Positions 31,953-61,171 of a DNA stretch of 64,000 nt are shown here, one piece after another (position 1 is the first letter of the stretch; the number at the start of each line of letters is the position of its first letter). The position numbers and the translations under genes are program-made. The DNA is from a phage: assembly GCA_018865545.1 (NCBI GenBank), contig GCA_018865545.1_3633.1, one strand, 5' to 3'. The notes below the pieces were generated by a model, which searched no databases, was not told the origin of the DNA, and worked only from the letters and a program-made list of their open reading frames with translations.

Positions 31953-32144
31953 ATGAGATTTTTATCTGCGTTAAGCATTCTCTTCATAGCGTTGAAGTTG
32001 TGTGAGATTATAGACTGGTCTTGGTGGTTAGTTCTTGCCCCTCTATACCTACCATGGGCAATTGTTGTCATGCCCCCTTTGATTATAGCGGTTACAGCAT
32101 TTGTCCTGTCTTTTCTCCAAGAAAAAGACAAAAAATCATCTTGA
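31953..32144 (+). CDS. small membrane protein
   Basis: 63 aa with two hydrophobic helices. Confidence 0.4.
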   Translation: MRFLSALSILFIALKLCEIIDWSWWLVLAPLYLPWAIVVMPPLIIAVTAFVLSFLQEKDKKSS

Positions 32145-32200
32145 CATACATGCATGCATAGTGTAAGATGTGATACTCAACAACCTTGTAAGGAATAGAC

Positions 32201-32542
32201 ATGCCTAAAGAAAAACAAACACCTGAAAATAAAGAGGATATCCGTTTTCTTGATCTTGATGAAGGGCAGTTTGGAACAATCGTATACTTGTCCAGCGCCA
32301 GTCACCAGATGGGAACAGTAATCGGGTCGAAAGAAATTCGAGAAGAGATGCTAAAGCTCATCCAAAGTGGTAACTATAAAACGGTAGAGGATGCAATTTC
32401 ATGGATCCGAGGACACCGCAACAATTTGTTGAAATTAAATACTGCTTCCACTTTTGCATTGAACCTGCTAAATCAAGTTGAAGATTTAGTGGTAGATAAA
32501 ATGTTGAGCGTTGGAAACGAAACTGCTGAAGGCGTTAAGTAA
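32201..32542 (+). CDS. hypothetical protein
   Basis: 113-aa ORF. Confidence 0.4.
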   Translation: MPKEKQTPENKEDIRFLDLDEGQFGTIVYLSSASHQMGTVIGSKEIREEMLKLIQSGNYKTVEDAISWIRGHRNNLLKLNTASTFALNLLNQVEDLVVDKMLSVGNETAEGVK

Positions 32543-32556
32543 TAAAAGGAGAGAGA

Positions 32557-33774
32557 ATGAGCGTAATCAATGAATTTAAGAATCCAATCAACGGAAAAGT
32601 TGATTATTTTGCGAAAGGTTTTATCAAGTATGTTAATATTCGTCCAGTGAAAAACGCTGACGCAGATGGTATCCGGCGTACCCATATCCCTGCTCGCAAC
32701 GGGCAACCAGCTAAAGTTATTGAGGCTACGCACTCAATCAGTTTCCTGATGCAAGAGGTTGACGATAATAACAACGTTATTGACCCACAGAGCCAAGGTG
32801 AGTGGATTTCTATGGGTGAGAAAAAACTTCACCCAAGCCATGCAGACAAAATTCAGGTGAAATTTGATTCTGGATACAAAGATATTGTGGCGGGGATGGT
32901 TGTTTCTTTCCCTCTCAAAATTACTAAGAGTGGGGATAAAACGTATACAAACGGCACTTTAAACGGAAAGACCTTCAGCATTCTCGATGAAAGTAAAGTT
33001 GGTCAAAGTGCTCCTCGCCAGCAATCTTCGACCCAATCACCTGCAAATGCCCAAGTTAAAGGCACTAAAATTTATGGTGAGATTGCTGCAATCGTTGGCA
33101 ATGTGGTGACAGTTAATGATGAGAAGAATGGTCAAGGAAACCTTGTCCTCACAGATGAGCAATTGGCGCAAGTTGTAGTAGGTGGTCGTGTCACTGCGAT
33201 TGTTAACCTAAGTGATGGTACGGTCTTAAGTGGATTTAAAGCCTATGGTCCTGCTGGGCAGACTAAGAAGTCATCTGGCGGCTATGATGCTTTAGGTGTT
33301 GCTTGTGGACACGGCATCAACGGTGTGAAGGAACTCATTAAAGCTGGTTTTAAGATCGAGGATCGTCTCTCTGCCGCGAAGATGGTTCACAACGCTACAG
33401 TAGCTATGAAGGCTTTTGTGGCAGAGAAAACAGGAAAAGATGTGGAATCTAATGCGGTGGGCGCTAGTGCGGGTAATGCTATCTTAGTGGCTTGTGCTTT
33501 GTATCATCAAACCGATAAACTAACAGAAGATAGTATTCTGAATGCCGCCAAAGATGTTTACCTAACACTATCAGAGCCGTTTTACGAGTTCTTATCTAAA
33601 GGTGATGGGAAGACACAACAAAAGAACAAACAGCATGCTAAGGAACCTTTGAACAGTTCCAATAGCGATATTCCGAATATGGAATCGCCAGCACCTGAAT
33701 TTGACTATGATGAAGATATCCCTTTCAGTCCTGTAGGTCTACAGTACGGTAAACATCGGGTATACATCCTGTAA
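32557..33774 (+). CDS. hypothetical protein, possibly ssDNA-binding (acidic DEDIPF-like tail)
   Basis: C-terminal FDYDEDIPF resembles the SSB acidic tip; Gly/Ala-rich middle. Confidence 0.3.
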   Translation: MSVINEFKNPINGKVDYFAKGFIKYVNIRPVKNADADGIRRTHIPARNGQPAKVIEATHSISFLMQEVDDNNNVIDPQSQGEWISMGEKKLHPSHADKIQVKFDSGYKDIVAGMVVSFPLKITKSGDKTYTNGTLNGKTFSILDESKVGQSAPRQQSSTQSPANAQVKGTKIYGEIAAIVGNVVTVNDEKNGQGNLVLTDEQLAQVVVGGRVTAIVNLSDGTVLSGFKAYGPAGQTKKSSGGYDALGVACGHGINGVKELIKAGFKIEDRLSAAKMVHNATVAMKAFVAEKTGKDVESNAVGASAGNAILVACALYHQTDKLTEDSILNAAKDVYLTLSEPFYEFLSKGDGKTQQKNKQHAKEPLNSSNSDIPNMESPAPEFDYDEDIPFSPVGLQYGKHRVYIL

Positions 33775-46128: not shown

Positions 46129-46995
46129 TTACTTACCAAACTTCATAGGGTTCCCATCCAGATCTTTAAATTCCCCAGACGGAGTAAGTGTATATGACCC
46201 AACTTTCTGTAGAGAAGTAACATCATCTAAATTATGGTGTCTGCTCTCTGACCAGTTTTTCCAGAAATCAGCTTGGTCTCCAGAGTATAATGTTTTTCTA
46301 GCCATAATATCAACTTCTTGTTGGGTAGCGGATGATTGAACAGAACCTTTCTGTTTTGTTTTCCCTGACTTCTTAGGATCTGTGTAGATGGTGGCTAAAA
46401 CAGTCTTTCCTAATGTGAATGTACGGAACTCTGTAAACTCTAATTGAAAAACTAATGCCGCGCCATCTGAATTGCTACGAGATGCCTCCATTGAAGTAAG
46501 GATATAATTATCTAAGATTCTATCCTCTGTCACAAGAGTTACAATTTGTCTTTGGTCTATGAGGCGCTCAAGCACTTCCAGAGCTTTTTCTGGTCTTTTT
46601 GAAGCAGCGGGGTTCTGATTATCGGTATCTTTATCTATGTAATTAAACTGAATAATTGAAAGTGGTGATGAGCTAACCCTTGCACTAAAAGAGAATTTCC
46701 CATCTTCTATTACACCGTGATCACTAAACTTAACCCTATCTTCAACTGCATAAGAAGTCTTATCCACAGTTCTCGTATAGGAGTGTTCTTCAACAACATC
46801 AAAAATTATAGCTAAATCGTCTGTATAATTTTTATCTTTCAGTTCAATATTACGACCACCATAATTCAAACCGCTGGCAAAAAGTGTATACTTAACACCA
46901 GAGCTTGTTTCTTGTGCATTACTTACCTTTCTTTCGACATTTGCTGTAGCTTTACCTTGCTGCGGTTTTGACTGGTTATTGGAAACTGAAGCCAT
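46129..46995 (-). CDS. tail protein
   Basis: 288-aa ORF downstream of the tape-measure region. Confidence 0.35.
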   Translation of the reverse strand: MASVSNNQSKPQQGKATANVERKVSNAQETSSGVKYTLFASGLNYGGRNIELKDKNYTDDLAIIFDVVEEHSYTRTVDKTSYAVEDRVKFSDHGVIEDGKFSFSARVSSSPLSIIQFNYIDKDTDNQNPAASKRPEKALEVLERLIDQRQIVTLVTEDRILDNYILTSMEASRSNSDGAALVFQLEFTEFRTFTLGKTVLATIYTDPKKSGKTKQKGSVQSSATQQEVDIMARKTLYSGDQADFWKNWSESRHHNLDDVTSLQKVGSYTLTPSGEFKDLDGNPMKFGK

Positions 46996-54658: not shown

Positions 54659-54723
54659 AAGAACTCCCGTTAAGGTATTTTACCACATTATCCAAGCAAA
54701 ATCAATAATTAGGAATACGATTG

Positions 54724-55242
54724 TCAATAATACCTGTGTTTTGGGTATCTCCGAGGAATACCGGGAACTCCTGTTTGAGGAACTATACCGGAAACATCAA
54801 ACGGGCTTCTTGAGTTAGGATTACTCTTAACACGCCAAAACTCATCCTGTCGCACACCGCCCACAATAACCAAACCAGAGACACCATTCAGGCAGCTATT
54901 GACGTAATCAGGGTTTTGCAGTAGCCAGTCCAGAAAATCTTTCCAGTTCTGATAGGAAGATCCACCTTTTACCTGTATCGTCTCATCACCTATCTTTTCC
55001 AATCTTTCTGTGATGGATGCCTCGCCAGAATTTATCTCTTGAAGAATTAACCATCTTAATACAGCCACCATTGTGTTATAGACCACTTTCCACATGTCGC
55101 AAGGCGTGGATGATGGGTTAGGCCAGTTTGCTCTTTTTTTCTCTATCTCAAGGAATGCCATGATAACTTCATCAGGTAGTGCCTCTGGGGATATTGACCC
55201 AAGCAGGAGCCTGATGTAATCAACAATTTCTTGGTCTGTCAT
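54724..55242 (-). CDS. head completion protein
   Basis: position. Confidence 0.3.
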   Translation of the reverse strand: MTDQEIVDYIRLLLGSISPEALPDEVIMAFLEIEKKRANWPNPSSTPCDMWKVVYNTMVAVLRWLILQEINSGEASITERLEKIGDETIQVKGGSSYQNWKDFLDWLLQNPDYVNSCLNGVSGLVIVGGVRQDEFWRVKSNPNSRSPFDVSGIVPQTGVPGIPRRYPKHRYY

Positions 55243-55314
55243 CTAACTCTCCATTTTATGTTACTTGTCAGTAACTATATTATCACAAAATACAATTTTT
55301 GTCATTAAAAACGC

Positions 55315-55342
55315 TTGACACGAAAAATTCCGTAGGTAAGAT
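55315..55342 (+). promoter_or_regulatory. candidate sigma70 promoter for the secreted-protein gene
   Basis: TTGACA (55315-55320), 16-nt spacer, TAAGAT (55337-55342); GGAGG before ATG 55370. Confidence 0.4.
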
Positions 55343-55369
55343 AAACACAACAATTGCTATGGAGGATTT

Positions 55370-55774
55370 ATGAAAAATATTTTAAAAATTACAATTGGTC
55401 TGTGCGTCTGTGCTGTTATTGCAGCGGGAACTCTCCAATATGTGAAAAAGAACCCAGATATTAATGATTATAAATCTGTCGAGGCAAGTTGGTTGTCGCC
55501 AGAAGAAAAAGATGAGGCAATTAGCCGTATTGTACAATTATCTTGCGATAAGAGATTCAGAGAAGCATTTAAACCAGGCGTTATTGTTGTGTCATCAGGT
55601 TTCGAGGGTAGGATAGCAGAACAGGCGGAAGCATATCAATATTTTGATGATGTCGCAATTATCTCAGGAAAACAATCTTACACTGGAAAATACATCTGCA
55701 CTTTTTACAAAGATGGGCGGGAAGTGTATATTAATGCAAACTTGGATAAAGGAGTGCAAGGAATCCTAAAATAA
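55370..55774 (+). CDS. secreted/periplasmic protein (moron-like accessory gene)
   Basis: N-terminal signal peptide MKNILKITIGLCVCAVIAAGT; opposite strand to surrounding structural genes; own promoter and terminator. Confidence 0.55.
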   Translation: MKNILKITIGLCVCAVIAAGTLQYVKKNPDINDYKSVEASWLSPEEKDEAISRIVQLSCDKRFREAFKPGVIVVSSGFEGRIAEQAEAYQYFDDVAIISGKQSYTGKYICTFYKDGREVYINANLDKGVQGILK

Positions 55775-55796
55775 AAGACCCCGAAGGGTCTTTTTA
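55771..55796. terminator. bidirectional rho-independent terminator
   Basis: AAAAGACCC-CGAA-GGGTCTTTT between convergent genes. Confidence 0.6.
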
Positions 55797-56054
55797 TCAC
55801 GACATAATACCAGCGGCTTTCAATTTGGCAAGCAAAGCATTAAAATCGTTGACCAACGTAGAGACATCTGAAGCCACAGAATCTGCTTGTGTTTGTGCTT
55901 TCTTAACACCTCCTAATACTGATTCCGTAGCCGCTGGAAGAACATAGCTATCTGAGCCTCCAGCAACAATATCTTCGATTTTCACAGATTTTCCAGTTTT
56001 TATATCAATAAGGCTTGATGCATATACTTTACCTGCTACGCCATTTGTTGCCAT
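55797..56054 (-). CDS. fibre-related small protein
   Basis: N-terminus MATNGVAGKVYASSLIDIKTGK resembles the N-terminus of 58239..59489. Confidence 0.4.
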   Translation of the reverse strand: MATNGVAGKVYASSLIDIKTGKSVKIEDIVAGGSDSYVLPAATESVLGGVKKAQTQADSVASDVSTLVNDFNALLAKLKAAGIMS

Positions 56055-56065
56055 ATTTTCTCCTT

Positions 56066-57676
56066 TTAACTTGTGTAACTATATTGAACAACATAGTTAA
56101 ATTCATGTGAGGCTTCATCAGCACCTGCTTCGGGTATTACTCCAGCTAACCCAGAATTACCAGCCCCACGAAGAAGTTTCTTGATTTCCTTTGTCTCAGG
56201 GTCGATGGTATGCGTGGGAACTGTTGGTAGAATAAGCCATACAGCCACTGTAGGTTTCTCTGATCCGACAACCTTGGGGTATTCTGCATAGATATCGTAA
56301 TCAAGATATGTACCATCTTCCATACAAGGTAGTTCTCTCAAGCGAACATCTGTAATAACATTTGTGCTGCCAGCAGGCGCGCTATACAGGGTGACTGTTG
56401 TTTTCAAATATATAGAAGACCCAGACCTCCCTACCGCTTTATCAGCCGAAGGTGTATCTCTATAATTGAAAGAAAAATTCCCAGATGTTGCTGACAACCT
56501 CATAGACGGCTGAGGGGAAAATGGGATATTAAAGCTCGCTTGTTGACTTGAATCATCTGTCATTGTAAAAGTTAGTGTAACCTGTTGTGCGTTATCAACT
56601 TCTTTCACAACAGCATTAACAGATTTTATTGTTTGACCATCAGGTGCTTTTGGTATTCCCAAATTTAAGACCTGTGATGGTGATTGACCAGTTATTTCAA
56701 TAGTAGGTTGTGATCCACTATCTAAAACAGTAACTGTGCCAGCAGACAGTGTGTAAGCATTATCAGAGATCTGCTTTTTAACAAATTCTACGTTGGCAAT
56801 CTGGGTTCCTATTGCTGAGTCACTTGGTGTCGGGCTTTGTGGTGTACCAGTGAACACAGGGCCATCAAGATCTGCCTTAAGGGAGATAAGACGTTTTAGT
56901 CCTTCAACATCAACCTTCAGGTTTTCCCATCCGATGAGATAACCACTACCAGTTGTATGATAACGGTTGTACCAAAAATCCCCGTTAACACCGAAAAAGA
57001 ATATCCCTTTCTCTTCGTATTGTGGACCAGAACTGTTCCGTGATGTACTAATATATTTTATTTCGATAAGTCCGTTGAATACCACTCCTGGAATTATTTT
57101 ATCTTCCCCTGCCAATTGTGATACTTGGTAAACCCCTGGTGTTGCTGCTCTAACCCATGTTAAGAACTCTGATGTTCCAGAGTTGCCACTAAAATTTTTT
57201 GTACTAGTGAGTATTGCTCCAAAACCAAACGCACCAGGTATAGCGGCAACACCTTCTGTACGATCATAAAGCCATTCTTGTACTTTAGTAGGTGCAACAT
57301 ACAACCCCTCTTCACCTTCAGAAGTTAGATTTGTTAAAGTATTTCCTTCTTTAGGAGATATAGGGATATTTATTTCGGGCGCTGTTACATATAATGCCCC
57401 TTGTTTCAACTCCAACAGGTTATTTGCAGCAGGGCTAACCTTAACAGCTAACCCATTATCTCCAGCTTGGAGAGCATTATTTTCATCTTCTGCCACCACA
57501 ACAACACCTTTAAGTGGTGTTGCTTTTTCACCATTACCTGAAAGTTTTATGGTCGCGGTGTCTTCTGTGTATAATTTAAAAGATTGGCTTGGGAGTCCTG
57601 ATCCTCCAATACTATGCCCATCTGGAAGTATGACTTCAGCATTGACAACTTTATCCTTATAATCCATAACTACCAC
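56066..57676 (-). CDS. tail fibre protein
   Basis: PVFTGTPQSPTPSDSAIGTQIANVEFV collar motif; C-terminal PGAFGFGA block shared with 58239..59489. Confidence 0.5.
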   Translation of the reverse strand: MVVMDYKDKVVNAEVILPDGHSIGGSGLPSQSFKLYTEDTATIKLSGNGEKATPLKGVVVVAEDENNALQAGDNGLAVKVSPAANNLLELKQGALYVTAPEINIPISPKEGNTLTNLTSEGEEGLYVAPTKVQEWLYDRTEGVAAIPGAFGFGAILTSTKNFSGNSGTSEFLTWVRAATPGVYQVSQLAGEDKIIPGVVFNGLIEIKYISTSRNSSGPQYEEKGIFFFGVNGDFWYNRYHTTGSGYLIGWENLKVDVEGLKRLISLKADLDGPVFTGTPQSPTPSDSAIGTQIANVEFVKKQISDNAYTLSAGTVTVLDSGSQPTIEITGQSPSQVLNLGIPKAPDGQTIKSVNAVVKEVDNAQQVTLTFTMTDDSSQQASFNIPFSPQPSMRLSATSGNFSFNYRDTPSADKAVGRSGSSIYLKTTVTLYSAPAGSTNVITDVRLRELPCMEDGTYLDYDIYAEYPKVVGSEKPTVAVWLILPTVPTHTIDPETKEIKKLLRGAGNSGLAGVIPEAGADEASHEFNYVVQYSYTS

Positions 57677-58242
57677 CCAATTTTTATCCTTTGTAATTCC
57701 TCAACCGTAGAGGCTGAAAGCACTTGATCTTTCATTTCTCGTTGCTTGATGTATATTGAATCATTCTTAGTTGCCAACTCGGAAGACATAGCCACAACAA
57801 GATTTTCAAATTCAGAGTTACTCATCTCTACAGGTTTGTTATCAACATCTCTCCAAACCACAGCTTGTCTAGCCGAGGATGCTTTTTGTGCTAATAATAC
57901 TGGATAAATACGACCAAGGGTTGCATTATTGACATCATACCTTGCACCATTATAAGAAACAATAGCTGTAGAGCTTTCTTCCAGTTTTCTCCACTCTTTT
58001 ATTTCTGATAACATCTGTTGCTTTAATGCCTCGATAAATTGAGGGTTTACTACATACGGGGCAATCTCCCCAAAATTACCAGATTGTAAGGAATCCCAAA
58101 CTGCCTTTCCTGTTTCGCTACAGTCGTTGCTGGAAGCGGTGTATGGGAGATAATCAGAGAAACCCTCAAAAAGGACGAGGCAATCAACGTCACCATTAAG
58201 AAGATACTGTGGAGACTTGATAGCTTTAATATCTAGCATCAT
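57670..58242 (-). CDS. tail fibre assembly/accessory protein
   Basis: 190 aa between two fibre genes. Confidence 0.3.
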   Translation of the reverse strand: MMLDIKAIKSPQYLLNGDVDCLVLFEGFSDYLPYTASSNDCSETGKAVWDSLQSGNFGEIAPYVVNPQFIEALKQQMLSEIKEWRKLEESSTAIVSYNGARYDVNNATLGRIYPVLLAQKASSARQAVVWRDVDNKPVEMSNSEFENLVVAMSSELATKNDSIYIKQREMKDQVLSASTVEELQRIKIGW

Positions 58243-59489
58243 GCAATCCTCATAAAAAGGCCAATATAACCTGTATCAGTACCATTTCTATTGCTTGGTG
58301 AACCGGATAAGGCTATAAACGTACCTCTCTGTGTTTCAGTACTGTGTGTAACAGAAACTGGTGTACTTTGATATGCACCTGTTGCGGAAACATTGCTATA
58401 AAGCGTTATACACCCTATGCGGGAACCTGGGATAGTCTGACCACGAACAAGTTTTCTGTTTGAATCACTATCCGACTCGCCAAGATACACTCCTAACATT
58501 ATTCCTCCAACATCAGGACTCCCCCAAGAATTGCCTACCGTAGACTGCAAAGAAGAGAATTGCCCTTTTATATTCACCCAGTCACCATTGGCAAAAATAG
58601 TCAGTAAGCGATAAAGGTACAACTCCCCATTTATGCCATAAAAATAGGCATGTTTACTATTTTTTGCTGCCTGCTCTGCATTCTCTGCTGGATATGGTGA
58701 CAATACCTCAACCATACCTCTAAAAGTGATCCCTTCAATAATACGTGTACCACCTGAAGGTAAATCTTGGCGAACAAGGTAACGACCAGGTTGTGCACTT
58801 CTCAACCAAGAAACCCATTCCTCTGGCCCATTCTTCTCTTGAAAAACAACTTCTTTCTCGGCAGGGATAAACGCCCCAAAACCAAATGCCCCTGGTAAAG
58901 ATACTACCCCATCGGTGGCATCATAGATATCGTTTTGTACATCTTTTGTAGCGGCGGTTTTTATCCCCAGATAATCAAGAACCCCAGTTTTTGAGTCTTG
59001 CCCTATAATAACTCGACCAACAGCGGAGAGATTTGCCAAAGCCATTACGTTTTTGTCACTGAAATAAGCTAGTTTATTTCCAGCAGTAATCAATCCTGAC
59101 AAAGATGTCAGTATTTCACTCAATGGTTGTTTACCCGCAAGCGCGTTAGTCATGGTGGTCGCAAAGTTAGGGTCATCACCTAATGCCTTCGCCAATTCAT
59201 TGAGAGTATCTAATGTTTCAGGCGCTGAGTCAGCCAATTTTGCAATTAAACCCCTCACATATTCTACATTAGCTATTTCCTTTCCAATAGCATCATCCAA
59301 CGGTGTTGGTGCTTGAGGGTTCCCTGTAAATGAAGGGCTTTCTATTGGGGCTTTAGATGCAATAAGATCTGTTATATCTTCTGGAATATTCCCGCCACCC
59401 AGTTCATCAAAATTTATTTTCTTTCCTGTCTTCTGGTCAACCAATGCACGACCATAAATTAAACCACCAACACCTGTTGTTGCTGTCAT
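58239..59489 (-). CDS. tail fibre protein
   Basis: PSFTGNPQAPTPLDDAIGKEIANVEYV motif; PGAFGFGA block. Confidence 0.5.
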   Translation of the reverse strand: MTATTGVGGLIYGRALVDQKTGKKINFDELGGGNIPEDITDLIASKAPIESPSFTGNPQAPTPLDDAIGKEIANVEYVRGLIAKLADSAPETLDTLNELAKALGDDPNFATTMTNALAGKQPLSEILTSLSGLITAGNKLAYFSDKNVMALANLSAVGRVIIGQDSKTGVLDYLGIKTAATKDVQNDIYDATDGVVSLPGAFGFGAFIPAEKEVVFQEKNGPEEWVSWLRSAQPGRYLVRQDLPSGGTRIIEGITFRGMVEVLSPYPAENAEQAAKNSKHAYFYGINGELYLYRLLTIFANGDWVNIKGQFSSLQSTVGNSWGSPDVGGIMLGVYLGESDSDSNRKLVRGQTIPGSRIGCITLYSNVSATGAYQSTPVSVTHSTETQRGTFIALSGSPSNRNGTDTGYIGLFMRIA

Positions 59490-60026: not shown

Positions 60027-60100
60027 AAAATCTCCTTTTATTCCTTAGTAAAAACCACTTGACAACACAGGATAAGTGGCTATTATTAAGGTCAGAATGT

Positions 60101-60132
60101 GAAAAAAGGGGAGGTGATAATTCACCTCCCCT
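60101..60132 (-). terminator. rho-independent terminator
   Basis: 10-bp stem GGGGAGGTGA/TCACCTCCCC with TAAT loop, then UUUUUU on minus strand. Confidence 0.6.
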
Positions 60133-60157
60133 CATTAGAGGTAGCATTTAAGCTATC

Positions 60158-61171
60158 TTATGCGAAAGTACCAGTAGAACGCACAACCAGTTCAGGACGG
60201 GTGTTAACCGTCAAGAAGGAAGTTTCAGATTCAACTTTCTCTTCACGCAGATATGCAGAAGATTTGTACCACAGATACAGTTCTTCAGCTACAGTGTTTG
60301 CTTCACGAACATCATCTGCCGGAGCATAGTGGATCTGGAACATATCATCAATACCTTGCGGCAGGATGTATGCTTCACCATCTGGGATATATCCAGAGAT
60401 GTCTTCAATGTAGGTTACGTTCTTATGAACAAACATACGGTTGTTGGCATTCTCAGAACCCATACCCAGACGACGACGCAGCGGCTCTTGGGTAGAAGAA
60501 TAATACTGGTATGCATTCATGATCAGCGGATGGGCGATCAGAGCAGAGAACCATTTACGAGAAGCCAGAACAATGATATTGTAGTTATTGCCGTTATCAC
60601 CTGCATTGTCGATGATGTATGCACGAGCGTCTTTCTCAATCAGATCAGACGGGTCAACAGCGACATCTGTGAAGTCGATATTGGCAGTATGCTGGGTAAC
60701 TCCCCACTCAGTAAAGTAGTTGTACTGTGCGGTCGGATCTTGTGGAGACCATGATTTACCCATGATTGCCTGAACCATTGCTTTTTCTTTCAGTTGTTCA
60801 TGAGAAACGCGAATACGCTTAACTACGCGAGCAACTACGTCTTCAACAGTTCTCGGAGCGTCCGTAGTGAAATATTTACGGAAGTTCTGAACATCTGCCG
60901 CAGTGATCTGACGATCCAGAGGGAAGAACGGAATGTTGAAGTTCTTGATTTGAGCTTTTTCACTACCCACATAGTTACGTTCTCCACCACGACGACGTGC
61001 AGGAATATCCGCAACAATTTCGTCAACACGCTCAACACGAGCAATTGTGGTTTCACCATGGTAAGCGGTGAACAGATCCATGTTGGTAATCAGGCGATAC
61101 TGACGTGGAACAAGTTCCAGTGCTGCGCCAAGGTTTACGATTTGAAAGTCGTTAGTCTGTACTGCTGCCAT
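60158..61171 (-). CDS. major capsid protein
   Basis: 337 aa; follows scaffold-like and decoration-like genes and precedes a strong terminator. Confidence 0.5.
   Translation of the reverse strand: MAAVQTNDFQIVNLGAALELVPRQYRLITNMDLFTAYHGETTIARVERVDEIVADIPARRRGGERNYVGSEKAQIKNFNIPFFPLDRQITAADVQNFRKYFTTDAPRTVEDVVARVVKRIRVSHEQLKEKAMVQAIMGKSWSPQDPTAQYNYFTEWGVTQHTANIDFTDVAVDPSDLIEKDARAYIIDNAGDNGNNYNIIVLASRKWFSALIAHPLIMNAYQYYSSTQEPLRRRLGMGSENANNRMFVHKNVTYIEDISGYIPDGEAYILPQGIDDMFQIHYAPADDVREANTVAEELYLWYKSSAYLREEKVESETSFLTVNTRPELVVRSTGTFA

Follow-up and report, generated by a model that had tools for sequence, protein, structure and literature searches.

A conserved, reversed gene cassette at the border of two late operons in a Vequintavirinae phage, and its possible role in envelope-level exclusion

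The subject of this analysis is a single plus-strand gene, with its own promoter and terminator, at positions 55315-55796 of a 64,000-nucleotide stretch of phage DNA (NCBI GenBank assembly GCA_018865545.1, contig GCA_018865545.1_3633.1; hereafter, the window). The source phage is a virulent, rV5-like coliphage, a myovirus of the Vequintavirinae; around this locus, vB_EcoM_TH18 and three sister records match it at 94% identity and Av-05 at 88%. An original prediction, made from the sequence alone, had described a 134-residue open reading frame (ORF) with a signal peptide between minus-strand head and fibre genes, a sigma70-like promoter, a ribosome-binding site, and a palindromic terminator, and had called this the classic layout of a moron, possibly for superinfection exclusion, receptor masking, or host modulation. 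By direct reading of the sequence, all of the elements described are present in 55315-55796. The features of the locus are as follows.

55276-55285, minus strand: late-type motif TGATAATATA (TGnTAAnATA, extended -10-like), serving the divergent adaptor/neck/tail operon and lying outside the cassette
55296-55314, plus strand: upstream block TTTTTGTCATTAAAAACGC, with invariant or near-invariant columns in alignments A3 and A8
55315-55320, plus strand: -35 hexamer TTGACA, invariant in all 11 A3 and all 10 A8 sequences
55337-55342, plus strand: -10 hexamer TAAGAT after a 16-nt spacer; T1, A2, and T6 are constant among all the relatives, with a spacing of 16-17 nt, and the other positions vary
55361-55365, plus strand: Shine-Dalgarno sequence GGAGG, 4 nt before the ATG at 55370, with its GGAG core conserved in A3 and A8
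55370-55774, plus strand: coding sequence of 134 residues, a member of PHROG 11434 ("membrane protein"), an ORFan family confined to the Vequintavirinae and under purifying selection
55388-55444, plus strand: hydrophobic segment, residues 7-25, rich in Gly, Ala, and Thr, read as a putative signal anchor with a cytoplasmic N-terminus and a periplasmic C-terminus
55451-55771, plus strand: acidic alpha+beta domain, residues 28-134, isoelectric point about 5.0, with a predicted cystatin/NTF2-like fold
55773-55794, both strands: putative bidirectional intrinsic terminator AAAAGACCC-CGAA-GGGTCTTTT with a 9-bp stem, shared with the convergent head-fibre/fibre operon

The 134-residue ORF does lie among minus-strand structural genes, at 55370-55774, and the roughly 30-kb minus-strand block from 33960 to 63914 has no other plus-strand ORF of 90 residues or more outside longer minus-strand ORFs. 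It converges on gene 55797-56054(-), which encodes an 85-residue protein that matches the C-terminus of Pfam Phage_head_fibr; upstream of that gene on the minus strand stand three fibre-type genes, a gene for a 169-residue protein, and the major capsid gene. On the other side, the divergent gene 54724-55242(-) encodes a homologue of rV5 gp057, for which related contigs carry the precomputed Pfam assignment Phage_Adaptor_PhiTE; after it come the genes for head closure, the tail terminator, and the sheath. The cassette sits at the border between the head-fibre/fibre operon and the adaptor/neck/tail operon. The structural setting stands as described, except that the upstream neighbor is the head-tail adaptor gene that starts the neck/tail operon and not a head gene.

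The protein matches PHROG 11434 with E = 3.3e-63, its residues 1-134 aligning with profile positions 1-134 of 134, and in PHROGs the family is classed as "moron, auxiliary metabolic gene and host takeover." A tblastn search found the protein in 66 phage records, all of them from Avunavirus, Seunavirus (PVP-SE1 gp66, GAP31, 4MG, and others), or Mydovirus (Mydo, KB57, Ro1, KP12, and others). The orthologues include Av-05 gp081 (YP_009111155), PVP-SE1 gp66 (YP_004893872), GAP31_206, 4MG gp064, KB57_068, and Mydo gp241, and protein identity runs from 96% (TH18) and 84% (Av-05) to 52% (PVP-SE1) and 38% (Mydo). Every record inspected has the gene at the same adaptor/head-fibre junction, in the same reversed orientation, and with the same terminator, and the three most divergent metagenomic members share this place and orientation. 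The ORF is under purifying selection, with a ratio of nonsynonymous to synonymous divergence (dN/dS) of 0.08 against TH18 and 0.14 against Av-05. In dN, it exceeds the structural genes next to it 2.5-5 times. A chance ORF is ruled out by this conservation, synteny, and dN/dS.

An exhaustive HMMER search of 1.84 billion representatives returned only four clusters of this family, none of them in cellular genomes; weak matches to the long repeat proteins P0020 and P0021, spread over multiple stretches, are regarded as repeat-inflated chance. Two annotations found in public records, "adenosine deaminase" (the TH18 group: OK136180, OK181858, OK181861, and ON075799) and "putative portal protein" (Salmonella phage 19 and GEC_vB_MG; KR296684 and MW006477), are unsupported by Pfam, NCBIfam, or the fold. 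The family as such is already catalogued. To it the analysis adds this member, an assignment of fold and promoter class, a model of the topology, and a history of insertion, but not a function.

The promoter (TTGACA, 16 nt, TAAGAT) and the GGAGG site hold up at their coordinates, and conservation backs both. Taken alone, a 10/12 match to the sigma70 consensus is no better than chance: a scan of the 16 kb from 48 to 64 kb gave 36 such sites, against 38.6 +/- 6.9 in shuffled sequence. The significance of the promoter comes from its conservation among relatives and not from the single-sequence match. Two alignments bear on it, A3 (the intergenic region of 11 phages from three genera) and A8 (10 sequences, including the most divergent metagenomic members). 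In both, the string TGTCAYYAAAAA..CTTGACA is invariant, as is a -10 element of the form TAnnnT at the fixed spacing of 16-17 nt, while the spacer and the 5' untranslated region vary freely. This conservation holds across genera whose synonymous sites are saturated and whose proteins are as little as 38-40% identical. By phylogenetic footprinting, then, the regulatory elements are judged to be real, and transcription is predicted to start near 55349-55350. Among public records, that of PVP-SE1 annotates terminators; the promoter is unannotated, and no function is given.

The class of this promoter can be compared with that of its neighbors. Motifs of the late type (TGGTAAAATA, TGATAAAATC, and TGGTAACATA) precede other minus-strand late genes, at 54685, 43468, and 48954 and in the gap upstream of gene 46129-46995, where the variant is TGATAAAATC; TGGTAAAATA-type motifs stand 25-60 nt upstream of several late structural genes, without a -35 element. 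The TGnTAAnATA motifs of the window match TggTAaAAtA, the motif upstream of late genes in rV5, which the authors of the rV5 study compared with T4 late promoters (PMC3606486). The late motif before the adaptor gene is conserved in relatives, including those that lack the ORF (alignment A6). We know of no late-transcription factor for the Vequintavirinae. In TH18, numerous TTAAAAAT-N4-TTGACA-16/17-TAnnnT sites, all intergenic and pointing the right way, are found in and around the small-ORF block at 80-94.5 kb, and Certrevirus promoters of the form AAAA(N3-4)TGTTGAC(N17-19)TATAAT have been assigned to early, possibly middle, transcription (PMC7344957). Judged by its motifs, the cassette promoter is of the same class as the early-region promoters, unlike the late-type motifs that flank it. 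A promoter of this early class would have the gene read early by unmodified host RNA polymerase, independently of late transcription, and, going by promoter class only, early transcription of this kind is most likely.

The divergent promoters abut. The A-tract of TTTTTGTCATTAAAAACGC resembles an UP-element proximal site, and its TGTCA forms, with the TGACA of the -35 hexamer, an invariant inverted repeat whose arms are 12 bp apart; read on the minus strand, the TGTCA arm gives a -35-like element, ATGACA. Since the two promoters abut in this way, mutual exclusion of polymerase binding between them is conceivable.

Two further promoter-like sites were seen on the plus strand. First, an A-tract with TTGACA-17-TAAGAT lies at 32141-32168(+), upstream of the plus-strand genes 32201-32542 and 32557-33774, which stand at the end of the plus-strand block and belong to PHROGs 7310 and 4477. 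Second, a strong sigma70-like site within the minus-strand block, at 60050-60160(+), reads TAAAAACCAC-TTGACA-16-TATTAT; at 11/12, it is the best match of the 48-64 kb scan, and it lies between the gene for the 169-residue protein and the major capsid gene. It points at the terminator hairpin of the capsid gene, GGGGAGGTG-ATAATT-CACCTCCCC (60108-60133), with no ORF downstream. Its TTGACA and TAnnnT are kept in GAP31, Mydo, KB57, and Ro1, and TH18 has TTCACA (alignment A7). This site could be an antisense or small-RNA promoter, or its conservation could serve the minus strand. Next to it, the 24 nt between the capsid-gene stop codon and the hairpin (60134-60157) are near-invariant across genera, reading TTAGAGGTAGC.TTTAAGCTAT.TTA (A7). 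Because the Mydovirus group differs here by a 1-nt indel, the segment cannot extend a coding sequence; it may be a small conserved RNA element, with TAGC-loop-GCTA and CCTC-TAAT-GAGG stems; Rfam gave no match for 60134-60157 and nothing credible across 54.5-60.5 kb.

At the other end of the cassette, the palindromic terminator common to the convergent gene proved to be present at 55773-55794, with covariation to support it. The hairpin overlaps the stop codon of the ORF, ends 2 nt before the stop codon of 55797-56054(-), and fills the 22-nt gap between the two genes. Its free energy is -11.4 kcal/mol on the plus strand (z = -4.3, with 0/200 shuffles as good) and -12.8 kcal/mol on the minus strand, and A-runs and T-runs on both sides of it would allow termination in both directions. 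The program used to scan for promoters and terminators extended stems maximally and hence missed this terminator. The stem carries a compensatory A-T to G-C change that separates the Avunavirus group from the rest (alignment A4), and the depositors of PVP-SE1 annotated terminators on both strands at this junction.

Related genera without the gene indicate how the cassette may have arisen. The adaptor gene was found in 268 records, of which 66 have the ORF. No reversed gene is present at the junction in rV5 (Vequintavirus), CR3 (Certrevirus), or pEa_SNUABM_56 (Henunavirus), where a terminator is followed, within a few tens of nucleotides, by the late-type motif and then by the adaptor gene (A6). 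pEa_SNUABM_56 nevertheless keeps a recognizably similar hairpin, GCCCCGAAGGGC (alignment A9). The best explanation is that the terminator is older than the cassette and is an operon-boundary stop that came to be reused bidirectionally. The simplest history would be a single insertion of promoter and gene between this terminator and the late promoter, placed in the common ancestor of Avunavirus, Seunavirus, and Mydovirus and kept in every sequenced descendant.

This history bears on the description of the locus as a classic moron. A conserved promoter and a terminator of its own appear to flank the single gene, which is lodged between genes that are adjacent in related phages. Expression from a prophage, to the benefit of the lysogen, is a further mark of morons in the Juhala/Hendrix sense, and here all relatives examined are Vequintavirinae, which are virulent phages. 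The metagenomic contigs examined showed no prophage or bacterial-genome context, and no scan of the window for lysogeny genes was made. What stands of the description is an independent unit that is absent from related genera; what does not stand is a sporadic moron of lysogenic conversion, as the phages are virulent and the gene is fixed in essentially all sequenced members of the three-genus clade (66 records). Comparison of the sequences thus identifies an apparently old, stably kept, clade-fixed accessory gene of virulent phages that is moron-like.

The N-terminus of the protein had been read as a signal peptide and the protein as secreted. In 20 family members, it opens with M-K-x-x-K, continues with an uncharged stretch of 19-24 residues (20-21 in most cases), and leads into K-(K/H)-x-P-(D/N). 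The N-terminal flank carries a charge of +1 or +2 (1-2 Lys), and the hydropathy in a 19-residue Kyte-Doolittle window is about 2.0-2.4. Sec signal peptides have an h-region of 7-15 residues and a polar c-region, as opposed to the uncharged stretch of 19-24 residues observed here. No AXA (small-x-small) cleavage site is conserved in the 20 members; AXA-like sites occur in some (AAG|T in the window protein) and are missing altogether from one. The PVP-SE1 record notes one transmembrane helix by TMHMM and Octopus, and the AlphaFold model (AF2) has a continuous helix over residues 2-27. An uncleaved signal anchor is thus more likely than a cleaved signal peptide, so that the hydrophobic N-terminus of the original prediction stands while cleavage and secretion probably do not, given the long uncharged stretch, the lack of a conserved AXA site, and the transmembrane note. 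A lipoprotein like Llp or Cor is ruled out: the family does not conserve the two N-terminal cysteines of the window protein, Cys12 and Cys14, and a canonical lipobox ([LVI][ASTVI][GAS]C) is found in none of its members.

The N-terminus may also be read as a cleaved signal peptide after all or as a releasable helix of the signal-arrest-release (SAR) type, and the latter leads to a different function. The protein could be a lysis-timing factor, an antiholin or holin accessory like T4 RI, in which a SAR N-terminal helix carries a periplasmic domain that binds the holin or a SAR endolysin and delays lysis. Gly, Ala, Ser, and Thr abound in the hydrophobic segment, whose mean hydropathy of about 2.0-2.4 is similar to that of the P1 Lyz SAR domain, about 2.1 by a hand estimate. 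The T4 holin gene likewise stands among fibre genes. Mydovirus KP12 has been reported with a SAR endolysin and pinholin candidates (PMC9902359), and the lysis genes of the subfamily are scattered and its holins poorly defined (PMC7344957). However, the endolysin gene is not adjacent, being about 55 kb away in TH18; rV5, Certrevirus, and Henunavirus lyse normally without the gene; and no similarity to RI was found in sequence or among the fold-search results. We consider a lysis-timing role quite unlikely.

Beyond the anchor, about 105 residues hold the invariant positions of the family, including its only two conserved cysteines, Cys59 and Cys110. An AlphaFold model built on a 20-sequence alignment reached a predicted local distance difference test (pLDDT) score of 89.4 and a predicted template modeling (pTM) score of 0.74, and it is on that alignment that the model rests; with a 4-sequence alignment, AF2 gave a pLDDT of 50 and an unusable model. 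In the usable model, a long helix (residues 44-64) packs on a 5-stranded antiparallel sheet (residues 72-125), followed by a short C-terminal helix. One helix across a 5-stranded antiparallel sheet defines the cystatin fold, and the modeled domain has this arrangement, with all fold matches below 16% identity. Cys59 lies in the helix and Cys110 in a strand of the model, which makes a helix-to-sheet disulfide between them plausible, and two conserved cysteines in an acidic domain suit an oxidizing compartment.

A domain of this kind might act on the host instead of on other phages. As a modulator of the host envelope, it would inhibit or redirect an enzyme of the host periplasm or inner membrane (such as a protease, a murein hydrolase, or an enzyme of O-antigen or capsule polymerization or ligation), and the infected cell would be stabilized or its surface receptors altered, which would spare progeny from being lost to infected cells and debris. 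The inhibitory motifs of cystatins are absent from the family alignment A5 (the N-terminal Gly, the QxVxG loop, and the PW loop), and there is no match to the Pfam cystatin family PF00031. Also, no host partner is identifiable by computation, and the fold is equally close to NTF2-like proteins that are not inhibitors. Host-envelope modulation is an unlikely, though not far-fetched, account of the gene.

The topology and the promoter class also bear on whether the product belongs to the particle, as a structural or morphogenetic protein of the neck/head-fibre region whose gene merely lies on the opposite strand. The gene does lie within the structural module, beside the adaptor and head-fibre genes, in every member, and a 12-kDa band of KP12 virions on sodium dodecyl sulfate-polyacrylamide gel electrophoresis was labeled "putative membrane protein." That label was given by size only and lacks mass-spectrometric support. 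Moreover, a membrane helix at the N-terminus, a pair of conserved cysteines that would suit the periplasm, a promoter of the host type and not the late type, a dN 2.5-5 times that of the structural neighbors, and the absence of the gene from relatives with the same neck architecture all speak against a place in the virion, which we deem very improbable.

We instead propose, tentatively and at somewhat less than an even chance, that the cassette encodes an early-expressed, envelope-level immunity or exclusion factor. The proposal starts from the layout: a self-contained unit of promoter, ribosome-binding site, and one gene, apparently inserted in reverse at the border of two late operons of a virulent Vequintavirinae myovirus, where a host sigma70 promoter would give early transcription by unmodified host RNA polymerase. 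The product would be a 15-kDa bitopic protein with a short cytoplasmic N-terminus, one membrane helix, and an acidic periplasmic domain of about 105 residues, of cystatin/NTF2-like fold and probably clamped by the Cys59-Cys110 disulfide. Tethered to the outer face of the inner membrane, this domain would bind and neutralize something that acts in the periplasm; we would guess above all at the tail-tip or ejection apparatus, or its wall-degrading enzyme, of like phages that arrive later. The proposal draws on the probably early and independent expression, the lineage-specific accessory nature of the gene, its high dN under purifying selection, and its site beside mosaic fibre genes. Evolution faster than that of the neighbors, under purifying selection, is what would be expected of an interaction or arms-race protein. 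As for the mode of exclusion, an inner-membrane anchor makes direct masking of an outer-membrane receptor unlikely; more plausible targets are tail-tip enzymes, ejection proteins, or a factor for entry at the inner membrane. Of all this, the analysis establishes the anatomy of the locus, its conservation and distribution among lineages, purifying selection, and the fold class, and the early timing, the topology, the disulfide, and the role in exclusion are inferred.

Known systems offer precedents for such a factor, and the likeness to T5 llp, the HK97 morons, and Cmi appears to be one of working and not of family membership. First, the morons of lambdoid phages, those of HK97 above all, are, like the cassette, extra genes with their own promoter and terminator between structural genes that are adjacent in relatives, and the HK97 "reverse moron" gp23 likewise lies on the opposite strand; the HK97 morons are in the tail region. 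HK97 gp15 is reportedly a small membrane protein that blocks DNA entry. The title of a cited reference calls this moron a superinfection exclusion protein. At 62 residues, gp15 lacks a folded periplasmic domain of the present size, and hhalign against it gave a probability of 0.2%. HK97 also differs in being temperate and expressing its morons from the prophage, whereas the phage here is virulent and the gene clade-fixed.

Second, T5 Llp (annotated as "Cor superinfection exclusion protein," T5.158) is, as here, the product of a small envelope protein gene of a virulent phage. The llp gene is divergent from the late receptor-binding gene oad (pb5), with back-to-back promoters in a shared intergenic region, and is said to be expressed early; its product blocks FhuA, protecting infected cells and progeny. 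Llp differs in being a 77-residue lipoprotein with a lipobox, whereas the present family is anchored by a transmembrane segment and has no conserved lipobox cysteine; llp stands at the end of the late region, whereas the cassette is embedded between two late operons. An hhalign comparison of A5 with Llp gave a probability of 0.6%.

Third, the colicin M immunity protein Cmi (PDB 2XGL and 4AEQ; YebF-like fold) has 117 residues, an anchor formed by residues 1-23, and a periplasmic sheet that winds around a long helix. Its single disulfide is essential and DsbA-dependent; the protein is encoded on the strand opposite to its neighbors with its own promoter, and it neutralizes an invader that acts in the periplasm (PMC8469651). 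The family studied here, at 134 residues, shares with Cmi an N-terminal inner-membrane anchor, a domain of sheet plus long helix, exactly two conserved cysteines, and a promoter of its own on the opposite strand. The family profile had no Cmi or YebF sequence match in the PDB at E <= 10 and no Pfam YebF match. The boldest form of our proposal would make the protein the phage counterpart of bacteriocin immunity proteins such as Cmi, namely, an early, inner-membrane-tethered, disulfide-clamped inhibitor of cystatin fold directed at a tail-tip enzyme or the ejection proteins of superinfecting Vequintavirinae, and would add a switch between mutually exclusive early and late promoters. In this complete form, it is quite unlikely.

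Other comparisons are with T4 and with type IV secretion. T4 Imm (inner membrane) and Sp (periplasm), which the proposed role would also parallel, are early products of a virulent myovirus that act against superinfecting phages by stopping the entry of their DNA or their tail lysozyme. Neither the Imm nor the Spackle family gave a Pfam or PHROG match, Sp is not among the fold-search matches listed, and Sp is all-helical, unlike the alpha+beta domain here. The bitopic proteins VirB8, TraE, and DotI of type IV secretion share 8-13% identity in the alignments listed; the present domain is smaller than that of VirB8, has one long helix where NTF2 and VirB8 have three, and comes with no secretion-system context.

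Several observations weigh against an early envelope-level exclusion factor. The authors of the rV5 study report sigma70-like promoters all over the genome (PMC3606486), which bears on the assignment of a promoter of this class to early transcription. The topology rests on simple rules, and the charges flanking the hydrophobic segment are not strongly asymmetric. The cystatin/NTF2-like fold is generic, a binding scaffold with many uses, and constrains function loosely; in Foldseek searches, no PDB entry outside the family matched at E < 0.001, and the viral models of BFVD gave the family only. Pfam, NCBIfam, PADLOC, and PDB sequence searches were empty for the single protein and for the family (Pfam had no match for any of the 20 members even at E <= 10, and PADLOC had 0 families at E <= 10). 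Nothing emerged that resembles a known exclusion or immunity protein in sequence, or significantly so in fold, and a literature search found no transcriptome, functional, or experimental study of the gene family.

Elsewhere in the module, the fibre-type genes at 56066-59489(-), which encode proteins of 536, 190, and 416 residues, are mosaic relative to TH18 and Av-05. In a megablast search, 56066-59489 was only 81-86% covered, in two pieces, and the 94% match to TH18 ends near 56065, at the end of the head-fibre gene; short patches of these genes match tail fibres of unrelated temperate phages. This mosaicism is ordinary fibre-module exchange. Just past the right end of the window, at TH18 63775-67488, the large terminase is annotated in three pieces with an HNH homing endonuclease gene between them, and it is likewise split in rV5.

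The locus provides a testable case of a moron-like, probably early gene inside the late module of a virulent phage. It also pairs divergent promoters, recognized by phylogenetic footprinting, with an apparently ancestral terminator reused both ways. PVP-SE1, Av-05, and the Klebsiella mydoviruses, all members of the Vequintavirinae, are widely proposed for biocontrol and therapy. If the proposed role is correct, a clade-wide gene for exclusion or for alteration of the envelope would affect the design of phage cocktails and would help explain cross-interference between these phages.

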